A stretch of 64,000 nucleotides of DNA from Arcobacter sp. (lineage in GTDB: Bacteria > Campylobacterota > Campylobacteria > Campylobacterales > Arcobacteraceae). Shown here one piece after another: positions 4,051 to 22,499 of this stretch. The stretch covers positions 15,874 through 79,873 of the forward strand of contig JAAETO010000285.1 in NCBI GenBank assembly GCA_024228275.1. Reading direction: 5' to 3'. The number at the start of each line of letters is the position of its first letter. Within the stretch, counting starts at the first letter, position 1. The position numbers were made by a program, and so were the translations under genes. The notes under the pieces are model-generated. The model saw only the letters and a program-made list of their open reading frames with translations, made no database searches and was not told where the DNA came from.

Positions 4051-4062
4051 TTTTTAAAGTAT

Positions 4063-4138: not shown

Positions 4139-4160
4139 CTTTAATAAAACTACCTCTAGT

Positions 4161-4247
4161 GCGAGTGTGGCGGAATAGGTAGACGCGTGGGACTTAAAAT
4201 CCCATTCCGGTTTCGGAGTGTGAGTTCGATTCTCACCATTCGCACCA
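4161..4247 (+). tRNA. tRNA-Leu (anticodon UAA)
   Basis: 87 nt with a long variable arm. The anticodon arm is tggga-cttaaaa-tccca and CCA is encoded. Confidence 0.9.
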
Positions 4248-4313
4248 TTTTTTGACAAAATCTTTTAAATATAATTTAAAAGATTAACGTCATCTTTCAA
4301 CAAATTTTTATAA

Positions 4314-4390
<77 letters not shown>

Positions 4391-4407: not shown

Positions 4408-6297
4408 TTAATCTATAGGTAAAATAACTTTAAATAATGCACCCGTATAATTTTTATTTTTATACTCAAAGGTATTGTTTTCTACTGTTATATCTCCATT
4501 TATATCATGCATCATTTTCTTACTTATATAAAGATCTAAACCTGTACCTTGGGATTTATGTTTTGTCGTAAAATAAGGTTCAAAAATTTTATTAATATAC
4601 TTTTCTTTTATTCCTCCTGCATTATCTTTAAAATTTATAATAATCTCTTTTTTATTTACTTCTAAGTTAATTAAAATTAATTTTTTAAAATCATTTTTTT
4701 GTTTCTTTAATTCATCGATTGAATTATTTATTATATGTATAAAGACTTGGATAATATTCTGTTCATTTAAATAAATTTTTACTTCATTTTTTAGATCCAA
4801 ATAAATTTTAATATTATTTGATATTATATTAGTATTTAATAGTTTAATACTTTTATGTAATAGGACATTTACATCAAAAAGATTAATCTCTTGAGTGTTT
4901 TTTGATAAATAGTTAAAAGTTTCTATTATATTAGATAAATTGTTACAATTTTCAATAATGCCATCAGTTAGTTTAATTAAAGTGCCTTTTTCTAAAATTT
5001 CATATTGCTCATGAAGTTTTATTCCACTAGCAGCTGTAGAAATAGCAGATAAAGGTTGTCTCCATTGATGAGCTATATTATCTATCATGTCATTTAAAGC
5101 AAGCATCTTCCTTTCATTAAAAAGAGAATTTTCTTGATCTTTTATTTTTGTAAAATCTGACATATATCCTATTAAAGATGTTAAGTTCCCTTCTTTATCT
5201 CTTACAATAAGCTTTCTTTCATATAACCACTTTATGTCTCCATTTTTATCAATAATTCTATATGGAGTATGTTCTATAAAGTCAAGTTTATTATTTCTTA
5301 CATTTTGATATTCAGCATTATATTTATCTAAATCTGCTTTATGAAGTAGATTACTAAAAATTATCTTTTTTTCTAATAAGTCTTTTTTCTCATATCCTAG
5401 GATAGAGTGTATATTACTTGATAAGTAAGAAAAATTATTTGATTTATAATCCCATTTAAAAAGCATTGTGTCTGCCTTATTAAATAATTCTAAGAGTGAA
5501 TTTTGCTCAGATGTTCTTTGTAATACTTTTTTTTCTAAATCAAAATTCTTACGCAAAATAGTATCTTGATATCTCTTAAAAATTTTATAAATATTTTTAG
5601 ACAAGTAGCTCATAATTATAATTCCAAAAATAGTAATTATGATTGAGATAAGAACTGTTTTTTTAATTGAGGATAACAGTTCCTCATTAACCTTTTTAAT
5701 TTGAAGTTTATTTATAGATTGAATTTCATTAATATATTCTCCTGTCCCTATAATCCAATCAAAATGATTTAATTTAGTTATATAAGATATTTTTTTTGCA
5801 GATAAATTAGTTTTTGGATTTATAGTTGCTTGATATTCATAAAAGAATCCATTTTTATTTTTTTTTGCTCTATTTATTAATTCTTGTACAATATAAATAT
5901 TATCTTTTTTTAACTTCCATCTGTTTTTACCTAAGAGATTCTTCTTGACATGGGCAATAGTATTTCCCTTAAAATCATAAGCAAATATGTATCCATCGTT
6001 TTGAAATTCAGTTTTGTTAATTAATTCTTGAATCTCTTTTTTAACTTCTCCAATTTTATGATGATTATTGAGTTTTATGAAATTGTCTATTAAATTTTTA
6101 GTTATATCTATTCTATTTCTTATAATATTTTTTAAATTTTCTTTATTAATTTTGTGTAAAGATTTTATTTCATCGTTGTAATGGGTTTTAATTTTATCTA
6201 CATAAAATATTGTAATTATGCAAGAGGTAAATATAATTCCCATAATGGGGATAATAATTATCCATTTATTAATATTGTTTTCTTTTATTTTAAACAT
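4408..6297 (-). CDS. sensor histidine kinase (N-terminal TM, Cache-like periplasmic domain, second TM, PAS, HisKA, HATPase_c)
   Basis: 629 aa. DGYIFAYDFKGNTIAH is Cache-like, TM segments flank that domain, and the H-box is IAHQWRQPLSAIS. The C-terminal FEPYFTTK...GTGLDLYISKK matches ATPase N/G boxes. No response regulator gene is adjacent. Confidence 0.8.
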   Translation of the reverse strand: MFKIKENNINKWIIIIPIMGIIFTSCIITIFYVDKIKTHYNDEIKSLHKINKENLKNIIRNRIDITKNLIDNFIKLNNHHKIGEVKKEIQELINKTEFQNDGYIFAYDFKGNTIAHVKKNLLGKNRWKLKKDNIYIVQELINRAKKNKNGFFYEYQATINPKTNLSAKKISYITKLNHFDWIIGTGEYINEIQSINKLQIKKVNEELLSSIKKTVLISIIITIFGIIIMSYLSKNIYKIFKRYQDTILRKNFDLEKKVLQRTSEQNSLLELFNKADTMLFKWDYKSNNFSYLSSNIHSILGYEKKDLLEKKIIFSNLLHKADLDKYNAEYQNVRNNKLDFIEHTPYRIIDKNGDIKWLYERKLIVRDKEGNLTSLIGYMSDFTKIKDQENSLFNERKMLALNDMIDNIAHQWRQPLSAISTAASGIKLHEQYEILEKGTLIKLTDGIIENCNNLSNIIETFNYLSKNTQEINLFDVNVLLHKSIKLLNTNIISNNIKIYLDLKNEVKIYLNEQNIIQVFIHIINNSIDELKKQKNDFKKLILINLEVNKKEIIINFKDNAGGIKEKYINKIFEPYFTTKHKSQGTGLDLYISKKMMHDINGDITVENNTFEYKNKNYTGALFKVILPID

Positions 6298-8368: not shown

Positions 8369-9013
8369 ATGAAACAACAAAAAATTAAAAAATTAAAAAC
8401 TAAAACTATTACGGAACAAGTATATGAACAATTAGAGCAAAAGATAATTTTTTGTGAAATTGAACCTGGTACTATATTAACTGAAAAAGAGATTTGTGAT
8501 ATGATAGGAGCAGGAAGATCTCCTGTTCACGAAGCACTTTTATTATTAGAAAGAAGATTTTTAGTAAATTTTTCAAAATTAGGTATTATGATACCTGAAA
8601 TGAATTCTTCTCTTCAATTACAATTATTAGAACTAAGAAGACCTATTTTAAAAACTTGCGTAGAGTGTGCTATTAAAAGATTAACTCAAGTTGATAAAGA
8701 CAATATTGACGAATTATTATCTTGTGTAGATGAACTTAATGAACCAGAATTTTTAAATTGGCTGGATAGACGGCAAGATGTTTTATCAAAAGCGTCAAAA
8801 AACTTTTTCATATATGAAGAACTTAGAAATGTACAAGGCTTATCTCGTAGATTTTGGTATTATTATTCAAAAAAAGATGATCATAAAGTAGTAAGAAAAT
8901 TACATAAAAAAATATTAAAAGCTGTTTACAATGAAAATAAAGAAGATGCATTAAAATATGTGGATGAAATAATTAATTACTTTGAAAATTTTGTTAGAAA
9001 AAATTTAATTTAG
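8369..9013 (+). CDS. GntR-family transcriptional regulator, FadR/FCD subfamily (regulator 1)
   Basis: 214 aa. It has an N-terminal winged HTH (VYEQLEQKII...PGTILTEKEICDMIGAGRSPVHEAL) and an all-helical C-terminal domain. It is a paralog of 19239-19880. Confidence 0.8.
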   Translation: MKQQKIKKLKTKTITEQVYEQLEQKIIFCEIEPGTILTEKEICDMIGAGRSPVHEALLLLERRFLVNFSKLGIMIPEMNSSLQLQLLELRRPILKTCVECAIKRLTQVDKDNIDELLSCVDELNEPEFLNWLDRRQDVLSKASKNFFIYEELRNVQGLSRRFWYYYSKKDDHKVVRKLHKKILKAVYNENKEDALKYVDEIINYFENFVRKNLI

Positions 9014-9112: not shown

Positions 9113-9157
9113 TAGAATATATCTTAAGTTTACATTAAGTAAACATCATGTAAACTT
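9113..9157 (+). promoter_or_regulatory. candidate operator region upstream of module 1 (17-mer shared with 20015-20031, plus a 10-bp inverted repeat)
   Basis: tagaatatatcttaagt (9113-9129) is identical to 20015-20031. aagtttacat (9126-9135) and atgtaaactt (9148-9157) form a perfect inverted repeat with a 12-nt spacer. The region lies 28-72 nt upstream of the ATG at 9185. Confidence 0.45.
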
Positions 9158-9184: not shown

Positions 9185-9568
9185 ATGAGTACAAAGAAAG
9201 CTATTAAAACAGATTTATTTGAGTCAAGTTCACCTTTAGAGTGGGCAATAACTTCTAATAATACTTTGTATACAGCTCAAATACCAATTGATAAGAATGG
9301 TATTGTTGTAGAAGGAGGTATTGAAGAACAAACTAGACAAACTATGAATAATTTAGTACATACTTTAGAATCAGCAGGTGTTACTACAAATGAGGTCTTG
9401 CAAGTTTTGATTTATGTAACTAAGAGAGATTATTTATCAGTTGTAAACAAAATTTATGCAGAATATTTTGAAGCACCTTATCCAAATAGAGCAGCAGTTG
9501 TTGTTGCAGGTTTAGCACGAGAAAATATGTTAGTTGAGTTAGTAGTTTATGCTCAAGCAAGTAAATAA
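9185..9568 (+). CDS. RidA/YjgF/L-PSP family reactive-intermediate (enamine/imine) deaminase
   Basis: 127 aa. GGIEEQTRQTMNNLVHTLESAG...PNRAAVVVAGLARENMLVELVVYA is the YjgF/RidA pattern. Confidence 0.8.
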   Translation: MSTKKAIKTDLFESSSPLEWAITSNNTLYTAQIPIDKNGIVVEGGIEEQTRQTMNNLVHTLESAGVTTNEVLQVLIYVTKRDYLSVVNKIYAEYFEAPYPNRAAVVVAGLARENMLVELVVYAQASK

Positions 9569-9584
9569 AAAAAAAGGAAAATAG

Positions 9585-11033
9585 ATGACTTATAATTTTG
9601 AAGAGGGTATATTTATTAATGGAACTTGGCAAAAAGGTAGCTTTACTATTCCTAATATTAATCCTTCTGATATCTCTGAGAATATAGGTGATTTAGCGCA
9701 AGCTAATAGTAATCAAGTAGAAGAAGCAATAGTTGCAGCAAATAAAGCTCAACCTTTATGGGAAAAAACATCTTTAGAACATAAAGTTAATGTTTTACAA
9801 TCAATAGGAGATGAATTAATTCAAAGATGCGAAGAATTAGGTGAACTTTTAGCTAAAGAAGAAGGAAAATCAAAAGCAGAGGGTAAAGGTGAGATTTACA
9901 GATCTGGACAATTTTTTCAATATTATGCAGCTGAGGTATTACGACAAATTGGTGAAAATGCAGCTTCTGTTAGACCTGGAATTGATATTGAAGTTACAAG
10001 AGAAGCTGTTGGTGTTGTTGGTATTATCTCTCCTTGGAACTTTCCAACTGCGACTGCCGCTTGGAAAATTGCTCCTGCTTTAGCCTTTGGAAATTCAGTT
10101 ATTTGGAAACCAGCAAATTTAACAGCTGCTTCAGCTGTAGCATTAACTGAAATTATATCTCGACAAGATATACCAGAAGGGACTTTTAATTTGGTTCTAG
10201 GTTCAGGAGGAACAGTAGGTGATACATTGATTAATTCAAAAGATATTAATGCTATTTCATTTACGGGTTCTGTGGAAACGGGAAGAAAAATAGCTATTGC
10301 AACTTCTGCAAATTTTGTTAAATGTCAATTAGAAATGGGGAGTAAAAATTCACTTATAGTTGCTAATGATGCAGATATATCAGTTGCCGTAGAATCTGCA
10401 GTTATGGGAGCCTATTCAGGAACAGGACAGAAGTGTACGGCTTCATCAAGATTAATTGTAATGGATGATATACATGATGAATTTGTAGAAGCTTTAACTA
10501 AAAGAATATCTGAGTTAAAAGTTGGTCACTGTATGGAAGAAGGTATATTTATGGGACCTGTTTGTGACAAAGATCAATTTGAATCTAATTTTAAATGGAT
10601 ACAAAGAGCAAAAGATTTAGGAGGAAAATTAGTAATTGGAGGAGAAAAACTATCTTTAGAAAAAGAGGGATATTATATGTCTCCTGCATTATTTATTGAT
10701 ACAAAAAATGATTGGGACATTAATCAAGAAGAGATATTTGCTCCAATGGCTTGTGTAATAAAAGTTAAAGATTTAGATGAAGCAATAAAAACAGCAAATG
10801 ATACAAGGTTTGGATTAACAGCTGGAATTATTACTCAAAGTCTAAAAACTGCAGCAATCTTTAAAAAAGCTGCTCAAAGTGGTTGTGTTATGGTAAACCT
10901 TCCAACAGCTGGAACTGATTATCATGTTCCCTTTGGTGGAAGAAAAGAATCAAGCTTTGGTCCAAGAGAACAAGGTTCTTATGCAAAAGAATTTTACACT
11001 ATTGTAAAAACAGCATATCAAAAACCTTATTAG
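9585..11033 (+). CDS. NAD(P)+-dependent aldehyde dehydrogenase (substrate unknown)
   Basis: 482 aa. ISPWNFP, FTGSVETGRKI, the catalytic-Glu motif LEMGSKNS, the catalytic-Cys motif GQKCTASSR and EEIFAP are all present. Confidence 0.85.
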   Translation: MTYNFEEGIFINGTWQKGSFTIPNINPSDISENIGDLAQANSNQVEEAIVAANKAQPLWEKTSLEHKVNVLQSIGDELIQRCEELGELLAKEEGKSKAEGKGEIYRSGQFFQYYAAEVLRQIGENAASVRPGIDIEVTREAVGVVGIISPWNFPTATAAWKIAPALAFGNSVIWKPANLTAASAVALTEIISRQDIPEGTFNLVLGSGGTVGDTLINSKDINAISFTGSVETGRKIAIATSANFVKCQLEMGSKNSLIVANDADISVAVESAVMGAYSGTGQKCTASSRLIVMDDIHDEFVEALTKRISELKVGHCMEEGIFMGPVCDKDQFESNFKWIQRAKDLGGKLVIGGEKLSLEKEGYYMSPALFIDTKNDWDINQEEIFAPMACVIKVKDLDEAIKTANDTRFGLTAGIITQSLKTAAIFKKAAQSGCVMVNLPTAGTDYHVPFGGRKESSFGPREQGSYAKEFYTIVKTAYQKPY

Positions 11034-11041
11034 GAAAAAAT

Positions 11042-12037
11042 ATGTATAAAGATCAAATTATTATTGATGGTTTGCAATATTGTAATTGGAGCAGAGATTA
11101 TTTTCTTTCTTTAAAAAAGAGTGGGATAACTGCTGTTCACGTTACGATTGTTTATCATGAAATGGCAAGAGAAACTTTAAGTAGATTTGCTCAATGGAAT
11201 AAACTTTTTGAACAAAATAGTGATTTGATAATGCCCGTAATGAGTATGACTGATGTTGAATTAGCAAAATCTACTGGTAAAGTAGGAATTTTCTTTGGAG
11301 CTCAAAATTGCTCTCCAATTGATGATGAAATTGGCTTAGTTGAAGTAATGAAAAAACAAGGCTTACTTATTATGCAATTAACATATAATAACCAAAGTCT
11401 ATTAGCAACTGGGTGTTATGAACAACATGATAGTGGGATTACAAGATTTGGGAAGCAAGTAATTGCAGAGATGAATAGAGTTGGAATGATTGTAGATATG
11501 TCTCATAGTTCTGAAAAGTCTACACTTGAAGCTATTGAAATATCAGCTCGACCTATTTGCATATCACATGCAAATCCAACTTTTGCACATAATGCATTAA
11601 GAAATAAATCAAATGATGTTATTAAGGCATTAGCTTCAAAGGGTGGATTACTAGGTTTCTCACTTTATCCTTTTCATTTACCAAATGGTAGTGATTGTAC
11701 ACTCGATGATTTTTGTGAAATGATTGCACAAACAGCTGATTTAGTTGGTGTTGATCATCTAGGAATTGGTAGTGATTTATGTTTAAATCAATCACAAGAA
11801 GTTTTGGAATGGATGAGAAATGGTAAATGGTCAAAAGATATGGATTATGGAGAAGGAAATGCTTCAAATTCGGGATGGCCAGATGATTTACCTTGGTTTA
11901 AAGATGAGAATGGAATGGAAAATATATATAAAGGTTTATTAAAATATGGGTTTAAAGAGGAAGAAGCTAATCAAATTCTTGGTGGAAACTGGTTTAGCTT
12001 CTTAAGTGATGGTTTAAAGCCTAAAAATCTTTTTTAA
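11042..12037 (+). CDS. peptidase M19 (renal/membrane dipeptidase)-like amidohydrolase-fold protein, atypical N-terminal metal motif
   Basis: 331 aa. VDMSHSSEKS, PICISHANP and GIGSDL match M19 blocks. Where M19 enzymes carry DGHND, this protein has IIDGLQYCNW. Confidence 0.7.
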   Translation: MYKDQIIIDGLQYCNWSRDYFLSLKKSGITAVHVTIVYHEMARETLSRFAQWNKLFEQNSDLIMPVMSMTDVELAKSTGKVGIFFGAQNCSPIDDEIGLVEVMKKQGLLIMQLTYNNQSLLATGCYEQHDSGITRFGKQVIAEMNRVGMIVDMSHSSEKSTLEAIEISARPICISHANPTFAHNALRNKSNDVIKALASKGGLLGFSLYPFHLPNGSDCTLDDFCEMIAQTADLVGVDHLGIGSDLCLNQSQEVLEWMRNGKWSKDMDYGEGNASNSGWPDDLPWFKDENGMENIYKGLLKYGFKEEEANQILGGNWFSFLSDGLKPKNLF

Positions 12038-12094
12038 AAAATTAAAAATTATTTTGGGTGATATTATCAAAAATATCATAAAAAGGATATCAAA

Positions 12095-13654
12095 ATGGAA
12101 ATGTCAGATATTATAGAAAAAAAAGAAACATTGAAGGAATTAGATGAAGGAAAACATAAAGTTGATAAATTAACTTTAATCCTTAGTAGTGGTTTTTTAA
12201 TGGCTTTTGTTATTTTAGCATTGGTTGATGCAAAATTATTAAGTTCAATTGTAAATGGCGGGTTTGCGTGGTCAACAAAAATGTTTGGAGCATATTGGCA
12301 ATTTTTATTATTAGCAACATTTTTAATTGGAATTGGTTTATCTTGGGGAAGAACTGGTTCAGTAGTACTTGGAAATACAAAGGAACCTGAAATGAGTACT
12401 TTTCAATGGATTGCGATTATTCTTTGTACCTTACTTGCAGGTGGTGGAGTTTTTTGGGCTGCAGGTGAGCCTATAGCACATTTTGTTTCTCCTCCTCCTT
12501 TATATGGTGTAGAAACTGATATGTTTCAAAAAGCAGTAAATGCTCTATCTCAATCATTTATGCATTGGGGATTTTTAGCATGGGCAATATTAGGAACATT
12601 AACTGCAATTGTTTTAATGCATTTACATTATGACAAAGGATTACCTTTAAAACCAAGAACATTACTTTATCCTGTATTTGGAGATAAAGTTATACATGGT
12701 CCTTTAGGTTCAATTATTGATGCTTTCTGTCTTATTGCTGTTGCTGCAGGAACTATAGGCCCAATAGGATTTTTAGGTTTACAAATTTCATACGCATTAA
12801 ACGCTTTATTTGACTTACCAGATAGTTTCACTACGCAATTTATTATTGTTTTAATTGCTATTTGTATTTATGTAATTTCAGCATTAAGTGGTATTACAAG
12901 AGGAATTCAAATTTTAAGTAGATGGAATATTATTTTAGCAATTGGATTAATGTTCTTTATTTTTGTTTTTGGACCAACTTCATTTATTGTTGATGGATAT
13001 ATTCAAGGAGTTGGTGCAGCTATTCAAAACTTCATTCCCATGGCAACTTTCAGAGCTGACACTGGTTGGTTAGGATGGTGGACTGTATTCTTTTGGGGAT
13101 GGTTCTTAGGATATGGTCCAATTATGGCAATTTTTATTGCACGAATTTCAAGAGGTAGAACAATCAGAATGTTAATTTTAGCCGTAAGTATTTTTGCTCC
13201 ACTCATTACAATGTTCTGGTTTACTATTGTTGGAGGAGCTGGATTATCATTTGAGATTGCAAACCCTGGAGTTATTAGTGAGGCATTTAAAGGATTTAAT
13301 TTACCAGCAGCATTATTAGCTATTACTCAATCATTGCCATTACCTTTAATTACTTCGATATTATTTTTAATATTGACAACAATTTTTATTGTTACAACAG
13401 GAGATTCAATGACATATACTATGAGTGTAGTTGTAAGTGGTAGTACTGAACCAAGTCCTTATTTAAGAGTATTTTGGGGTATTTTAATGGGTATTTTAGC
13501 AATTATTCTTATATCAATTGGCTCAGGAGGAATCTCTGCATTACAATCATTTATTGTAATAACAGCCGTACCAGTGTCTCTTATATTATTACCTGCTCTT
13601 TGGAATGCACCTCAATTTGCTATTAAAATGGCTGATGAGCAAGGATTAAAATAA
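12095..13654 (+). CDS. BCCT-family (betaine/carnitine/choline-type) secondary transporter
   Basis: 519 aa and polytopic. GWWTVFFWGWFLGYGPIMAIFIARISRGRTIR is the BCCT signature (W-x-FYWxWW...FIARIS-GRTIR). Confidence 0.85.
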   Translation: MEMSDIIEKKETLKELDEGKHKVDKLTLILSSGFLMAFVILALVDAKLLSSIVNGGFAWSTKMFGAYWQFLLLATFLIGIGLSWGRTGSVVLGNTKEPEMSTFQWIAIILCTLLAGGGVFWAAGEPIAHFVSPPPLYGVETDMFQKAVNALSQSFMHWGFLAWAILGTLTAIVLMHLHYDKGLPLKPRTLLYPVFGDKVIHGPLGSIIDAFCLIAVAAGTIGPIGFLGLQISYALNALFDLPDSFTTQFIIVLIAICIYVISALSGITRGIQILSRWNIILAIGLMFFIFVFGPTSFIVDGYIQGVGAAIQNFIPMATFRADTGWLGWWTVFFWGWFLGYGPIMAIFIARISRGRTIRMLILAVSIFAPLITMFWFTIVGGAGLSFEIANPGVISEAFKGFNLPAALLAITQSLPLPLITSILFLILTTIFIVTTGDSMTYTMSVVVSGSTEPSPYLRVFWGILMGILAIILISIGSGGISALQSFIVITAVPVSLILLPALWNAPQFAIKMADEQGLK

Positions 13655-13726
13655 AAAATCTATATTTAAATTAGACTAAAAGAAGTATCTAGGTACTTCT
13701 TTTAGTGAAAAATTTGGGAGATAAGA

Positions 13727-16141
13727 ATGGGTAAAAATATTAATACTTTAGATAATACACAATTAAGAGATTCAAGTATAGTAATGGACTTAAAAAGAAT
13801 GGGTTCTATGCATCAATCAAGAATTAGTTTTACAAGAACTCTTGTAAGAAAAATGGCAAATGAAAATTGGACTGTTACAAAAACTAAATGGGATCTGTGT
13901 AAAGATGGATATGGTACTGCAATTTATGAACTTAGAACACCAAATAATATTTATAATCTAGTAATTTTTTCTAATAATATTAAAGATGAAGAGAGAAATG
14001 ATAGAGTTATTGCTGAAAAATGGGATATTACATTTACACTAATTGATGGTGAAGTTAGCGAAACTCTCTTAGAAATGTTAAAAAGTAATGTACCTTTGCA
14101 AGAAGCTGGAAGAAATACAAATCGAGCCTTAGTGCTAGCACGTGCTAATAAAAGTGTTAGAGTTTTTTCTCATATTATTGATTCATTATCAAGTGGGAAA
14201 CAACCAAATATTAAAGAAGTTTCAAAAGTTGGCTATATATTAAGAACAACTGCCGTTTACGGAAGTGGTAAATTTGGTATAAATGACTATGCTGCATTAA
14301 AAGAAAATCCTGATTTCTCTCAATCATTTTCTGCTGAAATGTGTGCTGTATATATTTTAAGACAATTCTCTTTAGATTGGGCAAATTATATTGCTAAAAG
14401 TCAAGGTGGAAATAATGCAGTATCTTTAGATAAAGATATACAAAGATTCCTTGGAATTGGTAATGCTACTGGTTTAGGAATGGCTCCATATTTAATTAGA
14501 CATCCTAAAGTTGTTGATAATTGGTTATACCAAAGAGAATTAGCTTTAAGTAAAGTATCGTTAGAAGAGATTACAAAAGAAAAATCAAAAGAATTAATAT
14601 CATATCTAAATAGAGCAATCACTCATTTAGAAGATGTTGTAACTATAAATGAAAAGCAAAAAGAATTAAATGCTCAAGCAGCTTTAGAAATTCCTACGCT
14701 TATTGAATCTATAAATGAACTACTTGGTAAAACATATAAAGATTTAATTCATAGTTCTACATCTGTTTCTTTAGAAGCACAAGAAATTCTTATTTCTTCA
14801 ATTATTGAGTTATTCCCAGAACTTGTAGATTTTCATGAAAATCATATGAGAGTTGATGAACAACCATTAGAGTTAACAGGTGTTACAATTGAAGCATTAA
14901 AAAGTAAAATTAAATCTTATTATTCATGGGCTTTAAAATATGATTTTTCAAAAGAGAAAAGTAATTATTGGTTTTGGTATGTATCTGAAGATAAAGGAGA
15001 ACCAAGACTTGGAATTAGAAATATTGATAAAGGATCGGAGTTAGAACTTCCTTTAGATATTGCAAGACAAGTTTCAAAATTAGAAAAGATATTGGCAGAT
15101 ATCTCAAATAATGAACCTATTACTAAGTTTTTATTAGAAAACCCTCAATACTCATCTATTATTAGAAGAGTTTGGACTATGGGTGCATGTAAGATGGGTG
15201 AAATTCAAGCAAATGTTTTAGATAAAGATTTTCTTCCTATGGATTTATTAAGAGCTAAACTTGCTATGTTTGGAGCGACAAAGTTTGATCCTAGATCTGA
15301 TAGATGGGTTCAAGTTACATTTTTTCAAAGTGCTCCATTATTGGATGAAATTCATAATGCAGAGTGGTTATTCCCTCAACTTCCCAAAAGTAAAGATGAT
15401 AGATTGACTGTAGAAAGTGGAAAAATATCTGTATCAAGAACAGAACTTACAACTATGTGTAATAATGCTTTTAATGCCTTAAAAAGGGATTCTGGTGAAT
15501 CAGATCTAATTTCAAAAATGGTAGTTGATTTACAAATGGTGGGACTAGGTGGTGTTAAACAATTTGTAAATGCCTTAAAATATTTAAAAAATATTAATGA
15601 TTTATCATTGAATATCTCATCTGAAGGTTCATATATTACTGCTGATTTAAATAATGACACAATTTTAGGTCATATACAAATTTTAGTTGCATATGCATTA
15701 GAATCTATTCCTAAATATGAAACTGTAACCTTAGAAATTAAAAATTGTCATAATAGATGGTTAGTATTTTCTCAAGCTTTAAGAATTGCAAAAAAAGGTC
15801 TTAATGCAAGATTCTCTTGGAATAACTCATCTGATAGTGATCGAATTTCATATTGTATAAATGCTAATGATGAATTCCCAACAGTTTACAAAAGTAGAAG
15901 TGATAATTCTAATTTAAGAACATTAATAATAGAAATTAGTAAAACAAAAATTAATAGAGAATCTGTTAAATCAGAAATTATTAGTTCAAAAACTTTAGAA
16001 AAATCATTTAATGATGCAGTTGAAAATGGTTTAGTTATTGATTTAAATGATTGGAATGATTTAAAAGAAGTTGCAAAAGCAATTTATGTTGCATCTAGTG
16101 AAACATCTAAAAATGATGCTGGTGGAGCTATTGAAAAATAA
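13727..16141 (+). CDS. large hypothetical protein (804 aa), no family recognised
   Basis: Long uninterrupted ORF in an operon-like position, with codon usage like its neighbours. I saw no TM segment, signal peptide or familiar cofactor motif. Confidence 0.7.
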   Translation: MGKNINTLDNTQLRDSSIVMDLKRMGSMHQSRISFTRTLVRKMANENWTVTKTKWDLCKDGYGTAIYELRTPNNIYNLVIFSNNIKDEERNDRVIAEKWDITFTLIDGEVSETLLEMLKSNVPLQEAGRNTNRALVLARANKSVRVFSHIIDSLSSGKQPNIKEVSKVGYILRTTAVYGSGKFGINDYAALKENPDFSQSFSAEMCAVYILRQFSLDWANYIAKSQGGNNAVSLDKDIQRFLGIGNATGLGMAPYLIRHPKVVDNWLYQRELALSKVSLEEITKEKSKELISYLNRAITHLEDVVTINEKQKELNAQAALEIPTLIESINELLGKTYKDLIHSSTSVSLEAQEILISSIIELFPELVDFHENHMRVDEQPLELTGVTIEALKSKIKSYYSWALKYDFSKEKSNYWFWYVSEDKGEPRLGIRNIDKGSELELPLDIARQVSKLEKILADISNNEPITKFLLENPQYSSIIRRVWTMGACKMGEIQANVLDKDFLPMDLLRAKLAMFGATKFDPRSDRWVQVTFFQSAPLLDEIHNAEWLFPQLPKSKDDRLTVESGKISVSRTELTTMCNNAFNALKRDSGESDLISKMVVDLQMVGLGGVKQFVNALKYLKNINDLSLNISSEGSYITADLNNDTILGHIQILVAYALESIPKYETVTLEIKNCHNRWLVFSQALRIAKKGLNARFSWNNSSDSDRISYCINANDEFPTVYKSRSDNSNLRTLIIEISKTKINRESVKSEIISSKTLEKSFNDAVENGLVIDLNDWNDLKEVAKAIYVASSETSKNDAGGAIEK

Positions 16142-16193
16142 AAAGTATAATAATTACTGAATATTTTTATAGTAATTAGTTTGAGGTAGGAAA

Positions 16194-18431
16194 ATGAAAA
16201 ATAACCATTTAAATATTAAAATAGCTGGCGGTTGGGGTGCGCTTATTTCATCAAATAAATTTTTACTAAAAGAAGGTTTTTTCAAGCCTTCTAAAACCTT
16301 GTTAAAATTAAATCAATCAAAAGGATTTGATTGTCCTGGATGTGCCTGGCCAGACCCTAAAAATAAAGAAAGATCTATAGCGGAGTTTTGCGAAAATGGT
16401 GTAAAAGCAATTGCCTTTGAAACTACAAAAAAAAGAGCTTCGAAGGAGTTTTTTTCAAAAAACACAGTTTCACAGTTAAATGAACTTGATGTTTATGATA
16501 TAACTAATCTTGGACGTTTAACTGAACCATTTTATTACAACAGTAAAATAGATAAATATGAAGCTATTTCTTGGGATAATGCGTTTAGTATAGTTGCAAA
16601 ACATTTAACTAATTTACCTAAACCTGATGATGCAATATTTTATACTTCAGGAAGAACAAGTAATGAAGCAGCATTTTTATATCAATTAATGGGAAGAATG
16701 ATTGGAACAAATAATTTCCCTGATTGTTCAAATATGTGTCACGAATCTTCTGGTGTTGGTATGAATGAATCAATTGGTATTGGAAAAGGTACAGTCTCTT
16801 TAGAAGATTTTGATAAAGCTGAACTTATAATGATTTTTGGACAAAACCCAGGAACTAATCATCCTAGAATGTTAAGTGAATTACAAAAAGCATCTAAACG
16901 AGGTGCTAGAATTGTCTCTATTAATCCATTAAAAGAAGCAGGTCTAGTATCTTTTATTCATCCTCAGGATATTCCTTCAATGTTAAGTAATAAAGCAACT
17001 TCAATTAGTAGCCATTATTATCAAGTAAAAGTTGGTAGTGACATGGCTTTAATTCAAGCAATAATTAAATATATTCTTGAAACTCATCCTTATGCAATTG
17101 ATAATGATTTTATTAGTGCTAATACTAATGGTTTTGAAGAGTATGAGGAAACAATTTTAAATAAATCATGGAGTGTCCTACTTGACGAAAGTTCTTTAAA
17201 AATGGATGATATTATCCAGATAAGTGAACTTTACATCTCTTCTAGTAAAACTATATGTTGCTGGGCAATGGGTTTAACTCAACATCAACATGGCGTAGCA
17301 ACAATTCAAGAAGTAATTAACTTATTGTTAATTAAAGGTAATATTGGAAAAAAAGGTGCTGGAGCATGTCCTGTTAGAGGGCATAGTAATGTTCAAGGAG
17401 ATAGAACTGTTGGAATCTCTGAGGCTCCAAAAGAAGAATTTCTAAAAAAAATAGATAGTGTGTTTGATTTTACAAGTCCTAGAAAACATGGTTATGATGT
17501 AGTTCATGCAATCAAAGCTATGCATAAAGAGAAAAACAAGGTATTTATAGGTCTTGGTGGAAATTTTGCGGATGCTGCACCTGATACTAAATTAACTTAT
17601 GAGGCTTTAAAATCATGTGCCTTAACAGTTCATATCTCTACTCATTTAAATAAAAGTCATTTAATTTGTGGAAAAGAAGCATTAATATTACCCTGTTTAG
17701 GACGAACTGAACTTGATATTCAATTAGGTGGGGTACAAAGTGTAACGGTAGAGGATTCAATGAGTATGGTTCATTCCTCTAAAGGGAGTAATATTCCTAT
17801 TTCACGAGATATTAAATCTGAACCAGCAATAATTGCTGGAATTGCTAATGCGACTTTAGGAAATGAAAAGGTAGATTTTTTAGATTTAATAAGTGATTAT
17901 AATAAAATTAGAGATAAGATAGAAGAAGTATTACCTTCTTTTTATTCTTACAATAAATCTGTACTTCAAGATGATGGATTTGAATTATATAATAGTGCTA
18001 AAAATAAAGTTTGGGATACTCCAACAAAAAAAGCTAATTTTTTAATTAATAATACACCGAATTTAAATTTAGAAGAGAATCATTTAGCTTTAATGACAAT
18101 TAGATCACATGACCAATTTAATACAACAGTGTATGATACAAATGATAGATATAGAGGAATTGTAAATAAAAGAAGAGTAATTTTTTTAAATAAAAATGAC
18201 ATGGAAAAACTTTCTTTAAAAGATTCAGATATTGTAAATATAAGATCATATTCTAAAGATAAAATTAAAAGAGAAGTATTTAATTTTGAAGTTATATCTT
18301 ATGATATTAGGGACGGGTGTGCAGCTTCATATTTCCCCGAAACTACACCTTTAGTATCTATAGAACATTATGATAAAAAAAGTTTTACACCCTCTTATAA
18401 ATTTATTGATATAACTATAGAAAAAGTTTAA
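16194..18431 (+). CDS. FdhF/YdeP-family molybdopterin (bis-MGD) oxidoreductase, cytoplasmic, substrate unknown
   Basis: 745 aa. NQSKGFDCPGCAWPDPK is the characteristic YdeP-type N-terminal Cys motif, and MGLTQHQHG and RGHSNVQGDR are typical blocks. There is no twin-arginine signal. Confidence 0.8.
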   Translation: MKNNHLNIKIAGGWGALISSNKFLLKEGFFKPSKTLLKLNQSKGFDCPGCAWPDPKNKERSIAEFCENGVKAIAFETTKKRASKEFFSKNTVSQLNELDVYDITNLGRLTEPFYYNSKIDKYEAISWDNAFSIVAKHLTNLPKPDDAIFYTSGRTSNEAAFLYQLMGRMIGTNNFPDCSNMCHESSGVGMNESIGIGKGTVSLEDFDKAELIMIFGQNPGTNHPRMLSELQKASKRGARIVSINPLKEAGLVSFIHPQDIPSMLSNKATSISSHYYQVKVGSDMALIQAIIKYILETHPYAIDNDFISANTNGFEEYEETILNKSWSVLLDESSLKMDDIIQISELYISSSKTICCWAMGLTQHQHGVATIQEVINLLLIKGNIGKKGAGACPVRGHSNVQGDRTVGISEAPKEEFLKKIDSVFDFTSPRKHGYDVVHAIKAMHKEKNKVFIGLGGNFADAAPDTKLTYEALKSCALTVHISTHLNKSHLICGKEALILPCLGRTELDIQLGGVQSVTVEDSMSMVHSSKGSNIPISRDIKSEPAIIAGIANATLGNEKVDFLDLISDYNKIRDKIEEVLPSFYSYNKSVLQDDGFELYNSAKNKVWDTPTKKANFLINNTPNLNLEENHLALMTIRSHDQFNTTVYDTNDRYRGIVNKRRVIFLNKNDMEKLSLKDSDIVNIRSYSKDKIKREVFNFEVISYDIRDGCAASYFPETTPLVSIEHYDKKSFTPSYKFIDITIEKV

Positions 18432-18447
18432 AAGATAACATACTTTG

Positions 18448-18481
18448 ACCCAAAGATAAACAGTAAAGGATATCTTTGGGT
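18448..18481 (+). terminator. hairpin downstream of the YdeP-like gene (possible operon end)
   Basis: An 11-bp perfect stem (acccaaagata / tatctttgggt) with a 12-nt loop. No clear T-tract follows, so terminator function is uncertain. Confidence 0.35.
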
Positions 18482-18603
18482 TAAAAACTAATTTAAAAAC
18501 TATTTAACATCGAATGCCCAAATATAAGAAGTAATTCTTGGTTCGAATTTAACTTTTTTGTTTGATGCATATAAATTTATAAGAGGGTGAAAAGCTTTTA
18601 CCT

Positions 18604-19238: not shown

Positions 19239-19880
19239 ATGAAGAATAAATTAAAACGAGATAAGAATAAAACAATGACTAACCAAGTTTACGAAAAACT
19301 TGAAGATTTAATTGTATTTTGTAAAATAGAACCAGGTACAATTTTAACTGAATTAGAAATATCTGATATGATTGGAGCAGGGAGAACACCTGTTCGAGAA
19401 GCTTTAAGACTTTTAGCTAATGAATCTTTAGTTAGTATTTCACGAATTGGAATTCTAATTACTGAAACGAGTGCAACAACACAACTTCGACTTTTAGAAG
19501 TTCGAAGATCAATATTACATTTATGCATAGATAAAGCTATAGTTAGATTGACAGAATTAGATAAAAAAGATTTAAAAGAATTAATAGAATCTGTAGATGA
19601 AGTAGATGATGTAGAATTTTTGTATTGGCTGAAAAAAAGACATAGAATACTTGCAAATTGTTCTAAGAATCCATTTATATATGAAGAACTTAAGAATGTT
19701 CAAGGTTTGTCAAATAGGTTTTGGTACTTTTATGCAAAAAAAGAAGATCATAAAGATGGTCAAAGACTACATAAACAAATTCTAGAAGCAGTAATCAAAG
19801 AAGATAAAGATGAAGCTGTAAAAGCAGTAGATGAACTTATTGATTATTTAGAAGAATTTGTAAGAATCCATTCTATATAA
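19239..19880 (+). CDS. GntR-family transcriptional regulator, FadR/FCD subfamily (regulator 2)
   Basis: 213 aa. It is collinear with regulator 1 over its full length, with roughly half the residues identical by eye (e.g. IEPGTILTE.EI.DMIGAGR.PV.EAL, FIYEEL.NVQGLS.RFWY.Y.KK.DHK). Confidence 0.8.
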   Translation: MKNKLKRDKNKTMTNQVYEKLEDLIVFCKIEPGTILTELEISDMIGAGRTPVREALRLLANESLVSISRIGILITETSATTQLRLLEVRRSILHLCIDKAIVRLTELDKKDLKELIESVDEVDDVEFLYWLKKRHRILANCSKNPFIYEELKNVQGLSNRFWYFYAKKEDHKDGQRLHKQILEAVIKEDKDEAVKAVDELIDYLEEFVRIHSI

Positions 19881-19893
19881 CAAACCATATTAA

Positions 19894-19922
19894 AAGAAAG
19901 CCTATTTCTTAGGCTTTCTTTT
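19894..19922 (+). terminator. rho-independent terminator after GntR regulator 2
   Basis: A 10-bp perfect stem (aagaaagcct / aggctttctt) with a 7-nt loop, running into a T-rich tail. Confidence 0.6.
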
Positions 19923-20014
19923 AATCTTAATTATTAATTTCCCTCAATAAAACCAGCAGTAAAATTAAATCAGTCTAATATTAATTAAAAATCAAGATAT
20001 TTTTTAAGTATATC

Positions 20015-20031
20015 TAGAATATATCTTAAGT
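20015..20031 (+). promoter_or_regulatory. candidate operator upstream of module 2 (17-mer identical to 9113-9129)
   Basis: tagaatatatcttaagt lies 58 nt before the dctP ATG (the copy at 9113 lies 56 nt before its ATG). It sits inside the imperfect palindrome ttaagtatatctagaatatatcttaag (20005-20030). Confidence 0.45.
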
Positions 20032-20088
20032 ATATTTTAAGTTAGTGAAGCGTATACTTTCAATATATAAAATAAAAAAGGATGAAAG

Positions 20089-21141
20089 ATGTTAAGAAAT
20101 AAATTACTTGGTACAGCTTGTGCTTTACTATTAAGTGCAGTAACTTTAAGTGCAGAAACATGGAAATTTGCTAGTGAAGAAGCAAAAAAAGATGTACAAG
20201 ATATCTATGCTCAAGAGTTTGCAAAAGTTGTAAAAAAAGAGTCTAATGGAAAAATCAAAGTTAGAATTTATTATTATGGACAACTTGGTGGTGAAAATGA
20301 TATTGTTGAATTAACTTCAAATGGTTCAATTCAATTTGTATCAGTAGGAACTGGACATTTAGGTTCATATGTTCCAGAAGTTCAATCAATCTCGATTCCA
20401 TATGTATTAACAAATAATGAAGATGCAGCTTATGAAGTATTAACAACAAGTAAAACAATTTATAATGACTTAGCACCAAAATTTGAAAAAGCAAATTTAA
20501 AACTATTATCTATGATTAGTGAAGGTGAAATGGCATGGGGTGCAAACAAACCTATTAGAACTCCAGAAGATTTTGCTGGTCAAAAGATTAGAACATTCAC
20601 TTCAACTATTCCCGTTGAAACTTACAAAGCATTTGGAGCAGTTCCAACTCCTTTATCATGGGGAGAAGTTTACTCTTCATTACAACTAGGAACAGTAGAT
20701 GGTATGGTAAATCCAATGTACTTTATTTATAATGCAAAATGGCATATGGTTCAAAAATATATTATGTTCCCAGGTCAACAGCCATATATTGGGACTATTT
20801 CAACAAATTCAAAATGGTTTGCTAAACAAACACCAGAAAAACAAGCAATTATTAATAAAGCAATCAAAGCAGCAAATAAAGCAGCATTTATTTATCAAAA
20901 GAAAATCAATAAAGAAAATACTGCAAAAATGCTAGAAGAGAATAAAGAGTTAAAACTTATTACTTTAACACCAGAAGAGAGAAATAAATTTAAAGATATC
21001 AGTAAATCTTTACATGGGACTTTTTTAGATGTAGTAGCAAAAGCTTATCCTGATAATAAAAAAGAAGAAGCAAAAAAAGATGCTAAAAAAATATTAAATA
21101 ATTTAATTAAAGAAGTTAAAGAAGCTGAAAGTAGACACTAA
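20089..21141 (+). CDS. TRAP transporter substrate-binding protein (DctP family)
   Basis: 350 aa. It has an N-terminal signal peptide (LLSAVTLSAETW) and a DctP-type pattern (QLGGENDIVELTSNGSIQF, IRTF...AFGA.PTPL.WGEVY..LQ.G.VDG). Confidence 0.85.
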   Translation: MLRNKLLGTACALLLSAVTLSAETWKFASEEAKKDVQDIYAQEFAKVVKKESNGKIKVRIYYYGQLGGENDIVELTSNGSIQFVSVGTGHLGSYVPEVQSISIPYVLTNNEDAAYEVLTTSKTIYNDLAPKFEKANLKLLSMISEGEMAWGANKPIRTPEDFAGQKIRTFTSTIPVETYKAFGAVPTPLSWGEVYSSLQLGTVDGMVNPMYFIYNAKWHMVQKYIMFPGQQPYIGTISTNSKWFAKQTPEKQAIINKAIKAANKAAFIYQKKINKENTAKMLEENKELKLITLTPEERNKFKDISKSLHGTFLDVVAKAYPDNKKEEAKKDAKKILNNLIKEVKEAESRH

Positions 21142-21144
21142 TTA

Positions 21145-21167
21145 AAAAAGCCCTTTGGGCTTTTTTA
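21145..21167 (+). terminator. intra-operon hairpin/attenuator after the TRAP binding-protein gene
   Basis: aaaaagccc-ttt-gggcttttt followed by T's, immediately after the dctP stop. This arrangement commonly gives excess binding-protein mRNA. Confidence 0.6.
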
Positions 21168-21178
21168 AAGGAAAAATA

Positions 21179-21946
21179 ATGAAAATAAAAGTAATAGATA
21201 GTGAACTTAATAACACAATATCTCATAATGGAAAAATAGGTTTAATACTTCTTGCAACAGACCAAATTACGTTATATGAATTTGATGCAATTTTAAAAGA
21301 TACCGGAGTTTTATGTTTCCCTTCTAGGGTTATGATGGATTCTGTAGAACTTACACCTGAAGTTTTAATGGCGATAAAAAATGAATTAGCTTGCGCCACA
21401 AACACAATCTTACCAGGACTAACTTTAGATGTTGTTGCCTTATCTTGTACATCAGCTTCAATGACAATAGGTGAAGATGAAGTTGCAAGAATTATTAAAC
21501 AAAGTAATTCAAAAAGAGAGATAAAAGAAGTAACAAACCCATATACAGCAATTAAAAATGCATGTGAGTTTTTAAATATAAATGAGTTAGGAGTAATTAC
21601 TCCGTATAGTATAGAAGTAACACAAGGAATTATAGATGGTATGCAAGCAAATATCAAAACTATTAGTGCGGCGACATTTAATAATACAAATGACAATTTA
21701 GTTCCAAGTATTACCCCAGAGTCTATAAAAAATGCAGTAATTGAAATGGCAAAAGATGAAAAATTAAAAACCATTTTTGTCTCTTGTACAAATTTAAATA
21801 TAAGTAGATATATAGATGAATTAGAAAAAGTTACTGGTAAATTAATTTTATCAAGTAATCAAGTTATGGCTTGGGATATTTTAAGGTTAGCAAACTATAA
21901 AAAGCCAATTTTTGGTTTTGGTTCGCTTTTAAAGAAAGAGAGATAA
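21179..21946 (+). CDS. Asp/Glu/hydantoin racemase superfamily protein (maleate isomerase / EutA-like, two catalytic Cys)
   Basis: The start is moved to the ATG at 21179 (MKIKVID), which has an AGGA-type RBS and lies after the hairpin. The motifs VVALSCTSASM and IFVSCTNLN match the paired-cysteine motifs of maleate cis-trans isomerase-type enzymes. Confidence 0.7.
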   Translation: MKIKVIDSELNNTISHNGKIGLILLATDQITLYEFDAILKDTGVLCFPSRVMMDSVELTPEVLMAIKNELACATNTILPGLTLDVVALSCTSASMTIGEDEVARIIKQSNSKREIKEVTNPYTAIKNACEFLNINELGVITPYSIEVTQGIIDGMQANIKTISAATFNNTNDNLVPSITPESIKNAVIEMAKDEKLKTIFVSCTNLNISRYIDELEKVTGKLILSSNQVMAWDILRLANYKKPIFGFGSLLKKER

Positions 21947-21947
21947 T

Positions 21948-22499
21948 ATGAAAAATGTATTAGCAAAAGTTAATTATGTTACAGCAAAAATTGAGAAGAT
22001 AATTTTATCTATGTCTATTTTGTTGATGATGCTTAACACAACGGCAAATGCTTTAGGAAGATATATCTTTGATCAAAGTATATATTTTTCTGAGGAATTA
22101 AATCAGTTTTTGATGGTATCAGTAACTTTTATTGGATTAGCATATGCAGTTAGAAATGGAAGAAATATTCGTATGACTGCAATATATGATAACTTATCTC
22201 ATAAAAAGAAAAAGTTTTTGATGATTATAATTGCAATTACAACTTCTATGTTGATGTTTTTGTTAGCCTATGAAGCTTATAACTATGTGATGCAATTAAA
22301 AGAAATAAATAGATTAAGCCCAGCACTTCAAGTTGAAGTATACTTGGTATATATGATCGTACCTATAGGGTTTCTTATGGCTGGTATTCAATTTTTTATT
22401 AGGTTTATTCAAAATCTATTGCACGATGAAATTTATCTTTCTTTTGATGTTATTGAAGAGAAAGATTGTGATTCAACGATAGGTGATCAAGCATGTTAG
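21948..22499 (+). CDS. TRAP transporter small permease (DctQ family)
   Basis: 183 aa with four predicted TM segments. It sits immediately upstream of, and overlaps, the DctM gene. Confidence 0.8.
   Translation: MKNVLAKVNYVTAKIEKIILSMSILLMMLNTTANALGRYIFDQSIYFSEELNQFLMVSVTFIGLAYAVRNGRNIRMTAIYDNLSHKKKKFLMIIIAITTSMLMFLLAYEAYNYVMQLKEINRLSPALQVEVYLVYMIVPIGFLMAGIQFFIRFIQNLLHDEIYLSFDVIEEKDCDSTIGDQAC

Follow-up and report, generated by a model that had tools for sequence, protein, structure and literature searches.

The Arcobacter sp. DNA analysed here (the window: 64,000 nucleotides of contig JAAETO010000285.1, positions 15,874 to 79,873, with a G+C content of ∼28%) carries six closely packed genes on the forward strand (9185-18431), located 3' of a gene encoding a GntR/FCD regulator (8369-9013). 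An original prediction made from the sequence alone had counted seven same-strand genes behind this regulator. Open reading frame calls and domain searches bear out its gene positions and gaps (16, 8, 57, 72 and 52 nt within the unit), and yield six genes, or seven only when the regulator, which lies 171 nt upstream of the RidA gene, is counted. The genes assigned below to homarine catabolism (hom genes) have a slightly higher G+C content (0.30-0.33) than their flanks (0.23-0.26). The locus is composed of the following features, in which the Hom names are predicted assignments:

8369..9013, + strand: GntR/FCD regulator (PF00392 and PF07729), occupying the position of HomR
9126..9157, no strand: inverted repeat, candidate operator between the regulator and RidA genes
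9185..9568, + strand: RidA-family imine/enamine deaminase (PF01042), probable HomE
9585..11033, + strand: aldehyde dehydrogenase (PF00171), predicted HomD
11042..12037, + strand: amidohydrolase of M19 fold (PF01244) with a non-canonical metal site, predicted HomC
12095..13654, + strand: BCCT-family transporter (PF02028), predicted HomT
13727..16141, + strand: 804-aa fused protein, predicted HomB::HomA, with DUF3726 at residues 569-633
13727..15421, + strand: predicted HomB domain (residues 1-565), without Pfam match, recognised by homology to stand-alone HomB
15422..16141, + strand: predicted HomA domain (residues 566-804), PF12525 (DUF3726)
16194..18431, + strand: FdhF/YdeP-family molybdenum-bis(pyranopterin guanine dinucleotide) (Mo-bisPGD) oxidoreductase (TIGR01701)
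18444..18485, + strand: strong hairpin at the end of the unit, identified by folding energy against shuffles

The hairpin with which the unit had been predicted to close (then placed at 18448-18481) is confirmed. Positions 18444-18485 fold into a structure with a 15-bp stem, a folding energy of -20.2 kcal/mol and a z-score of -6.1, and none of 200 shuffled sequences folds equally well; it has no T-run (U-tract), and the terminator scan made no call there. The consensus promoter and terminator scans were uninformative at 28% G+C, promoter-like sites being no commoner than in shuffled sequences.

Based on gene sizes, gene order, predicted functions, HomA-HomB adjacency and the taxa concerned, all of which match a published operon, this cluster is very probably the Campylobacterota version of the operon for the catabolism of homarine (N-methylpicolinate). 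This operon, homABCDER with homT, was described in 2026 (Ferrer-Gonzalez et al., Nat Microbiol, PMC13236597); the main text of that paper reports the order homE-A-B-T-C-D-R in Cobetia sp. OBi1 (ACFLL8_11490-11520), and homA, B, C, D and R without transporter and without homE in R. pomeroyi DSS-3 (SPO3188-3192). There, homA measures ∼700 nt and homB ∼1,700 nt, the latter being described as of unknown function, and their products are modelled as a heterodimer, while homC encodes a peptidase, homD an aldehyde dehydrogenase and homT a "glycine betaine transporter". According to the same text, homB, homC, homD and homR mutants do not grow on homarine, deletion of homT in Cobetia slows growth on it, and the products are N-methylglutamate and then glutamate (PMC13236597). 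The genes homA and homB are reported as adjacent in 97.7% of 11,755 genomes, of which 68.9% are gammaproteobacterial (Vibrionales included) and which come from oysters, cheese and clinical material, among other sources; homE, which lies upstream of homA or downstream of homD, is found in 93% of gammaproteobacteria and is rare in alphaproteobacteria (PMC13236597).

Read backwards, the Cobetia order (aldehyde dehydrogenase, peptidase, BCCT transporter, 1,700-nt gene, 700-nt gene) is the D-C-T-B-A order of the window cluster, and in both, as in Phaeobacter, the BCCT gene lies between homC and homB. The two also share a HomB of ∼566 aa, a DUF3726-type HomA of ∼230 aa, a peptidase-like HomC, an aldehyde dehydrogenase as HomD, a BCCT-type HomT, a regulator at one end, and a variable small auxiliary gene adjoining homD. 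The putative homD (9585-11033) and homC (11042-12037) genes lie 1.7-4.1 kb upstream of homBA on the same strand. We assign HomD, HomC, HomT and HomB::HomA with high confidence, by synteny and homology. The locus is a variant of the known system: HomB and HomA form a single polypeptide, the regulator belongs to the GntR/FCD family instead of the LysR type of the gammaproteobacterial and Rhodobacterales loci studied, the host belongs to a phylum to which the main text of PMC13236597 makes no reference, a formate dehydrogenase-like molybdoenzyme of the FdhF/YdeP type is appended, and there are no mgd genes nearby in the 64-kb window.

The unit is conserved well beyond Arcobacter. We determined synteny in the best 80 of at least 581 confirmed relatives, scanning one genome per species; 75 of these loci had enough flanking sequence for gene order to be read. 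The order RidA, aldehyde dehydrogenase, M19, BCCT, 566-aa protein (HomB), DUF3726 protein (HomA) is colinear and on the same strand in 72 of the 80, a clustering that far exceeds chance and that upholds the operon-like unit originally proposed. Its carriers are Vibrionaceae, Psychrobacter, Shewanella, Moritella, Psychromonas, one Spirochaetia metagenome-assembled genome (MAG), one Alphaproteobacteria MAG, and Campylobacterota (Arcobacter, Poseidonibacter, Campylobacter lari and Helicobacteraceae MAGs). The aldehyde dehydrogenase, M19 and BCCT proteins are 65-80% identical between Campylobacterota and Gammaproteobacteria, from which we infer that the hom unit moves horizontally.

The Rhodobacterales harbor a second layout. 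A Ruegeria sp. locus (L094) consists of a LysR gene and the series aldehyde dehydrogenase, M19, 563-aa protein, DUF3726 protein and Ldh_2 (type-2 malate/lactate dehydrogenase family), without BCCT and without RidA, and thereby reproduces the published layout of R. pomeroyi SPO3188-3192; pGal_A255 of Phaeobacter gallaeciensis carries the same type of cluster plus a BCCT gene, adjoining sarcosine-oxidase-like genes. The window proteins are 58-59% (aldehyde dehydrogenase), 55% (M19), 57% (BCCT) and 39% (HomB) identical to their Rhodobacterales counterparts, and HomB of Phaeobacter and Ruegeria, used as query in protein searches, found homologues in many Ruegeria species. A genuine Ldh_2 gene directly follows homA in the Rhodobacterales loci (9387-10394 in L090, 9389-10396 in L094), where RidA is absent, whereas gammaproteobacterial and Campylobacterota loci show the reverse pattern, RidA being present without Ldh_2. 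The two proteins may represent alternative fates of an imine intermediate, reduction and hydrolysis, respectively.

These comparisons bear on the view initially taken of the cluster, namely that it encodes an unrecognised pathway for an unknown substrate. A new seven-gene osmolyte or amine pathway, unrelated to described routes and with the YdeP molybdenum step and the orphan protein as integral parts, would agree with the mismatch between this gene set and the betaine, carnitine, ectoine and dimethylsulphoniopropionate (DMSP) routes, and with a HomB that has neither a Pfam family nor a fold match in the PDB. Yet the published operon, as described in its main text, explains five or six genes of the cluster (PMC13236597), the YdeP-like gene that was held to be integral is absent from more than 95% of the loci and hence dispensable, and the "orphan" belongs to a large family. 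We regard this reading, refuted by synteny and literature alike, as having next to no chance of being correct; an orthologous cluster with a known pathway is precisely what the original prediction had named as grounds for its refutation. Literature searches for DUF3726, or for BCCT, RidA, dipeptidase and aldehyde dehydrogenase together, gave no match.

Other substrates were considered and rejected. Dimethylglycine catabolism, suggested by the association of PA5396/PA5397 with dgcAB (see below), is ruled out as the locus has no dgcAB or etf; hydroxyproline betaine or hydroxyproline, suggested by an aldehyde dehydrogenase resembling 2-oxoglutarate-semialdehyde dehydrogenases, does not match the gene set, nor do ectoine, creatine, carnosine/anserine, opines, or the conversion of carnitine to trimethylamine.

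The 804-aa protein that had been taken for an orphan has more than 7,750 database homologues, its N-terminal 565 aa matching 1,274 clusters at 50% identity, and carries a DUF3726 domain (PF12525, 37-40 bits) at residues 569-633; it seems to be a fusion of HomB, the signature enzyme of the hom pathway, with HomA. An NCBI entry from an Arcobacter sp. MAG matches it with 100% identity. The putative HomB domain is 55-57% identical to stand-alone proteins of 560-580 aa in Vibrio, Shewanella and others, and 39% identical (E ∼1e-118) to a 563-aa protein of Phaeobacter and Ruegeria clusters with the order LysR, aldehyde dehydrogenase, M19, (BCCT), this protein, DUF3726. In the split form, a "hypothetical protein" of ∼566 aa is followed by a DUF3726 protein of ∼240 aa, as in Vibrio, Aliivibrio, Photobacterium, Shewanella, Moritella, Psychromonas and Psychrobacter. 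In 75 loci, HomA is encoded by a gene of its own (216-264 aa) right behind that of HomB; fusions of the two occur in nine loci (C. lari, three Poseidonibacter, an Arcobacter MAG, two Helicobacteraceae MAGs, a Cardiobacteriaceae isolate and a Spirochaetia MAG) and in the window. This natural fusion supports the predicted HomA-HomB heterodimer independently of the published modelling.

HomB itself apparently represents a fold without solved relative. Residues 1-565 have no Pfam match, and searches with the halves at E ≤ 10 returned a sub-threshold "HisKin-conflict" hit alone, which we disregarded. The AlphaFold model of HomB is of high quality (predicted local distance difference test, pLDDT, 94.7; predicted template modelling score, pTM, 0.93), and a Foldseek comparison of this model with the PDB gave no structural match (best E-value 0.44), while the HomBA family profile retrieved only noise from PDB sequences (T-cell receptor chains at E ≥ 0.19). 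The conserved residues of HomB include many arginines and a glycine-rich loop, GxGNATGLGMAP, at residues 243-254. The model of the full-length protein matches the Ldh_2 folds DpkA, AllD and YiaK (Foldseek E 3e-6 to 4e-4, probability 1.0, target TM-score 0.44-0.53), DpkA being an imine reductase/N-methyl-amino-acid dehydrogenase. Since the HomB-only model shows none of these matches, we attribute the likeness to the HomA/DUF3726 part, which thus looks Ldh_2-like in its modelled fold. At the sequence level, PF02615 has no match in the HomA part, hhalign found no match between the HomBA family and E. coli AllD, and hhalign of HomA against four Ldh_2 proteins gave only a weak, 41-column N-terminal match (probability 7%); next to one distant HomB homologue, the following gene encodes a 320-aa protein that matches PF02615 weakly.

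Distant HomB-like proteins (26-33% identity) occur with an M19-like gene and other transporters and regulators in three further loci (L091, L088 and L089); these HomB-like proteins either carry a C-terminal extension or are accompanied by a partner gene for a small hypothetical or an Ldh_2-like protein. On S. meliloti pSymB (L091), the HomB-like protein (26% identity) is found with an IclR regulator and an ABC transporter; in L088, a 936-aa HomB-like protein accompanies LacI, GST and an ABC transporter; and L089 combines a HomB-like protein with OCD, an Ldh_2-like protein and BCCT. These are systems paralogous to hom.

The first gene of the unit encodes a RidA-family protein (PF01042, 80 bits; TIGR00004, 75 bits, below the cutoff of 106), and the RidA gene adjoins the aldehyde dehydrogenase gene in 73 of the 80 loci. 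As this homD-adjoining position and the distribution of the gene, common in gammaproteobacterial and rare in alphaproteobacterial loci, match the description of homE, the protein is probably HomE. The putative HomD (PF00171, 491 bits) is 58-59% identical to the Phaeobacter/Ruegeria aldehyde dehydrogenase and 66-88% identical to those of other full-cluster loci; its top NCBIfam matches are 2-oxoglutarate-semialdehyde and 2,5-dioxovalerate dehydrogenases (477 and 446 bits, below the cutoffs).

The putative HomC matches PF01244 (248 bits) from profile position 36 onwards, and its best solved structure is 2I5G (E 2e-68), an uncharacterised "amidohydrolase" of 325 aa. The canonical N-terminal motif of M19, DGHND, reads DGLQY in HomC, with loss of His-x-Asp. 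In comparison with the dipeptidase Sco3058, GAEG is replaced by GAQN, so that the metal-bridging Glu has become Gln, while VDxSH, SH and GIGSD are kept. The canonical M19 set of binuclear-zinc ligands is thus incomplete in HomC, which retains two His and the Asp of GIGSD and, by these motifs, is an M19 fold without the canonical dipeptidase site. A similar pairing of an M19 protein with a small protein is known from the P. aeruginosa dgc operon, where the M19-like "dipeptidase" PA5396 and the small hypothetical protein PA5397 are encoded upstream of dgcAB; a PA5396/PA5397-type pair likewise precedes dgcAB in V. natriegens. The dgc operon differs from hom in having no HomB and in its substrate, dimethylglycine. 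PA5396, the first gene of this operon, has 978 bp and so codes for a protein of the same length as 2I5G.

The putative HomT is a BCCT protein (PF02028, 498 bits) that scores below the cutoffs of all equivalogs for glycine betaine, choline or carnitine (NF047988, 329 vs 650; BetT, 258 vs 695; CaiT, 223 vs 541), and is 57% identical to the BCCT within the Phaeobacter hom-type cluster. In its motifs of transmembrane helices 4 and 8 (HWGFLAWAILG and FFWGWFLGYGP), the aromatic box appears altered by eye (Tyr to Leu, Trp to Phe, Trp to Tyr). This agrees with a report on BCCT4, BCCT6 and BCCT7 of V. natriegens, whose boxes are likewise altered and which failed to transport any of six common osmolytes, homarine not being among them.

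The regulator encoded at 8369-9013 shares 64-82% identity with its positional counterparts at the C. lari, Poseidonibacter and Arcobacter loci. Regulators at hom loci are of the GntR/FCD family in Campylobacterota, versus a divergent LysR gene in those examined from Gammaproteobacteria (Vibrio and Shewanella) and Rhodobacterales (Phaeobacter and Ruegeria), so that, judging by the protein families, the regulator has been swapped and position alone retained. The GntR/FCD protein would act as the local regulator of the operon. Between its gene and that of RidA, we found an inverted repeat (9126-9157: AAGTTTACATTAAGT / ACATCATGTAAACTT) with 15-nt arms that are 87% complementary, and the RidA gene of the Poseidonibacter locus L006 is preceded by a comparable element (CTTAAGTTTACAYTAAGTAAACAT, 5356-5382). 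We propose this repeat as a candidate GntR operator.

The functions predicted for these proteins can be aligned with the published metabolites. The homarine ring is reported to open with the N-methyl group retained, and features of composition C7H9NO5, C6H9NO4 and C6H9NO3 accumulate together with N-methylglutamate (C6H11NO4), according to the main text of PMC13236597. In the pathway that we propose, HomT would import homarine, HomB::HomA would open the N-methylpyridinium ring with the N-methyl group kept, and HomD would oxidise the resulting C5 aldehyde, a precursor that resembles 2-oxoglutarate semialdehyde and therefore suits the nearest relatives of HomD. As homarine has seven carbons and N-methylglutamate six, ring carbon C6 must leave; HomC would remove it, presumably as formate from an N-formyl enamide (C7H9NO5 + H2O → C6H9NO4 + HCOOH). 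This mass balance fits a hydrolytic deformylation of 2-(N-methylformamido)pentenedioate, an isomer of the trigonelline intermediate MFMS. HomC appears suited to such a step because the substrate is an N-acyl dehydroamino acid, the type used by "dehydropeptidase" M19 enzymes. The enamine/imine C6H9NO4 could then either take up 2[H] to give N-methylglutamate or H2O to give 2-oxoglutarate and methylamine, a hydrolysis that the RidA-family protein (probable HomE) might perform. The latter route would explain how a Vibrio isolate with hom but without mgd grows on homarine (PMC13236597, main text). In Poseidonibacter and in the Arcobacter of the window, the FdhF/YdeP-type molybdoenzyme would oxidise the released formate in the cytoplasm. 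In this scheme, we infer the structures of the intermediates, the release of formate and the roles of RidA and YdeP. An O2-independent, hydrolytic ring opening (N-C6 lactam hydrolysis) was also considered, and is ruled out, as it keeps seven carbons versus the C6 products reported. Of the chemistry first read from the gene set, uptake, C-N bond hydrolysis, aldehyde oxidation and imine quenching fit the published homarine intermediates, while the redox step at a molybdenum centre falls outside the conserved pathway.

The proposed route recalls the degradation of trigonelline (N-methylnicotinate) by TgnA-F of Acinetobacter baylyi ADP1, in which the ring of another N-methylpyridinium carboxylate is said to be opened with the methyl group retained. 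A C7H9NO5 N-methylformamido intermediate reportedly occurs there as well, its hydrolysis freeing formate and methylamine, and a semialdehyde dehydrogenase is said to catalyse the last step, to succinate. The two routes would share the logic of a ring opening with methyl retention. They differ in the proteins, with a HomB without solved relatives, an Ldh_2-like model for HomA and other hydrolase families, and in the end product, which for hom is N-methylglutamate or 2-oxoglutarate, not succinate. TgnAB is reportedly a flavin reductase/oxygenase pair; by its model, HomB::HomA might open the ring in a manner unlike the TgnAB-type flavin oxygenase proposed by analogy.

Several points weigh against the assignment to homarine catabolism or against the chemistry derived from it. 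Orthology was judged via congeneric Ruegeria/Phaeobacter loci and the published descriptions of SPO3188-3192 and ACFLL8_11490-11520. The regulator, being GntR/FCD, does not match in family the homR position of the loci with LysR. Pairwise alignment of the HomA part with Ruegeria HomA finds no similarity (E 5.9), the PF12525 profile alone being common to them. FAD-binding motifs are reported in HomA in the main text of PMC13236597, a discrepancy with our Ldh_2-like model, which would imply an NAD(P)H-dependent protein. The role of HomC as a "deformylase" is uncertain because it lacks canonical M19 metal ligands. The main text of the same paper makes no mention of Campylobacterota or of the homE product, and formate features in it as a solvent or buffer component only, never discussed as a product (PMC13236597). 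Finally, the 64-kb window contains no mgd- or sox-like genes for the demethylation of N-methylglutamate.

Some of the same evidence might indicate that the Campylobacterota cluster acts not on homarine but on a related solute, such as another N-methylated heterocyclic or zwitterionic BCCT substrate: sets of HomB-like and M19 genes exist with other transporters and regulators (S. meliloti pSymB, L088, L089), HomB has just 39% identity with that of Rhodobacterales, the regulator is of another family than the LysR found elsewhere, and the V. natriegens transporters mentioned above accepted none of the osmolytes offered and hence have an unusual specificity. The window proteins nevertheless group with those of Gammaproteobacteria (HomB at 55-57% identity, the aldehyde dehydrogenase, M19 and BCCT proteins at 65-80%, with an identical gene order), the paralogous systems are far more distant, and among Gammaproteobacteria a hom-bearing Vibrio isolate uses homarine for growth and Vibrionales express homB in situ, as stated in the main text of PMC13236597. 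We therefore consider another solute improbable, and retain homarine as the substrate.

The sixth gene, which encodes the YdeP-like molybdoenzyme, has a different standing. Its product exceeds the cutoff of TIGR01701 (890.6 bits vs 582), stays below that of the E. coli YdeP equivalog NF007406 (739 bits vs 1473), and shares 44% identity with E. coli YdeP and 25% with FdhF; a blastn search of the gene against E. coli genomes gave no match at the DNA level. A Cys aligns with U140 of FdhF, and His141 and Arg333, catalytic residues of formate dehydrogenase H, are conserved (NMC[H]ESSG vs RVU[H]GPS; V[R]GHSNV vs V[R]GQNNV). No twin-arginine motif is visible in the N-terminus, and no FdhD gene was seen among the annotated open reading frames of the window. 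The statement in the original prediction that the YdeP family has no established substrate is partly outdated, as a role in formate oxidation is reported for Fdh4A of M. extorquens, and formate induces the P. putida family members PP_4596 and PP_0256, which are 59% identical to Fdh4A (PMC10308882). From its residues and relatives, the enzyme could be a cytoplasmic formate dehydrogenase that oxidises the formate released, a role that we put forward tentatively and that would be the simplest one because a formate-releasing step is predicted just upstream in the pathway.

The gene follows the operon in two of the 80 species loci, in L006 and in the window, that is, in Poseidonibacter (L006-L008) and the window only; the cultured species Poseidonibacter lekithochrous and P. 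ostreae have this cluster with the YdeP-like gene. It is a lineage-specific addition and not part of the core, and could be a neutral insertion. Alternatively to a role in the pathway, then, the core genes would form a homarine operon while the YdeP-like gene encodes an unrelated oxidoreductase, for stress or for an unknown substrate, caught between the hom operon and the GntR/TRAP module downstream. That all adjacent cases belong to one lineage argues for this, as do the related Arcobacter locus L030, which passes from HomBA straight to the next GntR gene without YdeP, the lack of YdeP in C. lari, in Helicobacteraceae and in all gammaproteobacterial and alphaproteobacterial loci, the score below the YdeP equivalog cutoff, and, within the 52 nt that precede the gene, a TATAAT-like box that may be a -10 element and would allow its independent transcription. 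These observations, like the possibility of a neutral insertion, speak against a function of the enzyme in homarine degradation. On the other hand, the gene lies on the same strand as the operon at a distance of 2-73 nt in Poseidonibacter and 52 nt in the window, with no hairpin between them and the sole strong hairpin after the YdeP-like gene, the catalytic residues of formate dehydrogenase are conserved, family members respond to formate, and the carbon balance of the pathway needs a one-carbon outlet. On this evidence, the case for an unrelated oxidoreductase stands in the balance. The more specific proposal, that a YdeP-type molybdoenzyme was recruited into the homarine operon to serve this pathway alone, as a formate dehydrogenase for the C6 carbon freed by HomC, appears less likely than not.

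The enzyme differs from other members of the FdhF/YdeP family in its setting, as the window gene ends a putative heterocycle-catabolic operon and is not part of an acid-resistance or one-carbon regulon. A comparable arrangement exists in formylmethanofuran dehydrogenase, where the amidohydrolase FwdA acts on an N-formyl bond and is coupled to FwdB/D, a formate dehydrogenase-like Mo/W subunit that interconverts formate and CO2. The putative HomC and YdeP-like proteins would likewise combine an amidohydrolase with a formate dehydrogenase-like module, run backwards, and the YdeP-like protein has a weak match to TIGR03129. This is an analogy only: the direction would be opposite, and the proteins are non-orthologous.

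Homarine is among the most abundant small nitrogen-containing metabolites of marine phytoplankton and invertebrates, and a bacterial route for its breakdown was identified only in 2026. Our assignment would extend the host range of the hom operon to Campylobacterota, several carrier genera of which are known from shellfish and other animals, and would make it possible to name thousands of clusters now annotated as [quoted passage not shown]. The appended formate dehydrogenase-like enzyme points to the one-carbon unit that the pathway leaves unaccounted for; if a dedicated role in formate oxidation proved true, the YdeP branch would gain a defined source of its physiological substrate, and the deformylation step, which is unassigned in the published pathway, would be confirmed. 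A HomB fold without solved relative and a HomC without canonical M19 metal ligands make this enzymology worth solving.

The surroundings of the locus contain further gene sets. An array of ten tRNA genes (3310-4387, + strand) lies ∼4 kb upstream of the regulator gene. Directly downstream of the unit, a second catabolic module (19239-27688, + strand) encodes a GntR/FCD regulator, the TRAP components DctP/Q/M, an Amdase-like protein of the Asp/Glu-racemase superfamily, a pyridoxal phosphate-dependent (PALP) enzyme, an M20 peptidase and a hydrolase with M24 and Creatinase_N domains. This module is syntenic in Poseidonibacter with 75-96% identity, and resembles genes for ectoine/hydroxyectoine degradation (doeA/eutA/eutB-like). 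It is followed on the opposite strand by a gene for an 821-aa NirB-like protein (28062-30527, - strand) with Pyr_redox_2, BFD-like 2Fe-2S and NIR_SIR domains. Further along the same strand, the window encodes a second Mo-bisPGD enzyme, with an Fe4S4 domain, adjoining a fusion protein of a 4Fe-4S dicluster domain and a DmsC-type membrane anchor (34081-37896), and a 540-aa protein that unites PP2C phosphatase and Ser/Thr protein kinase domains (38126-39748).

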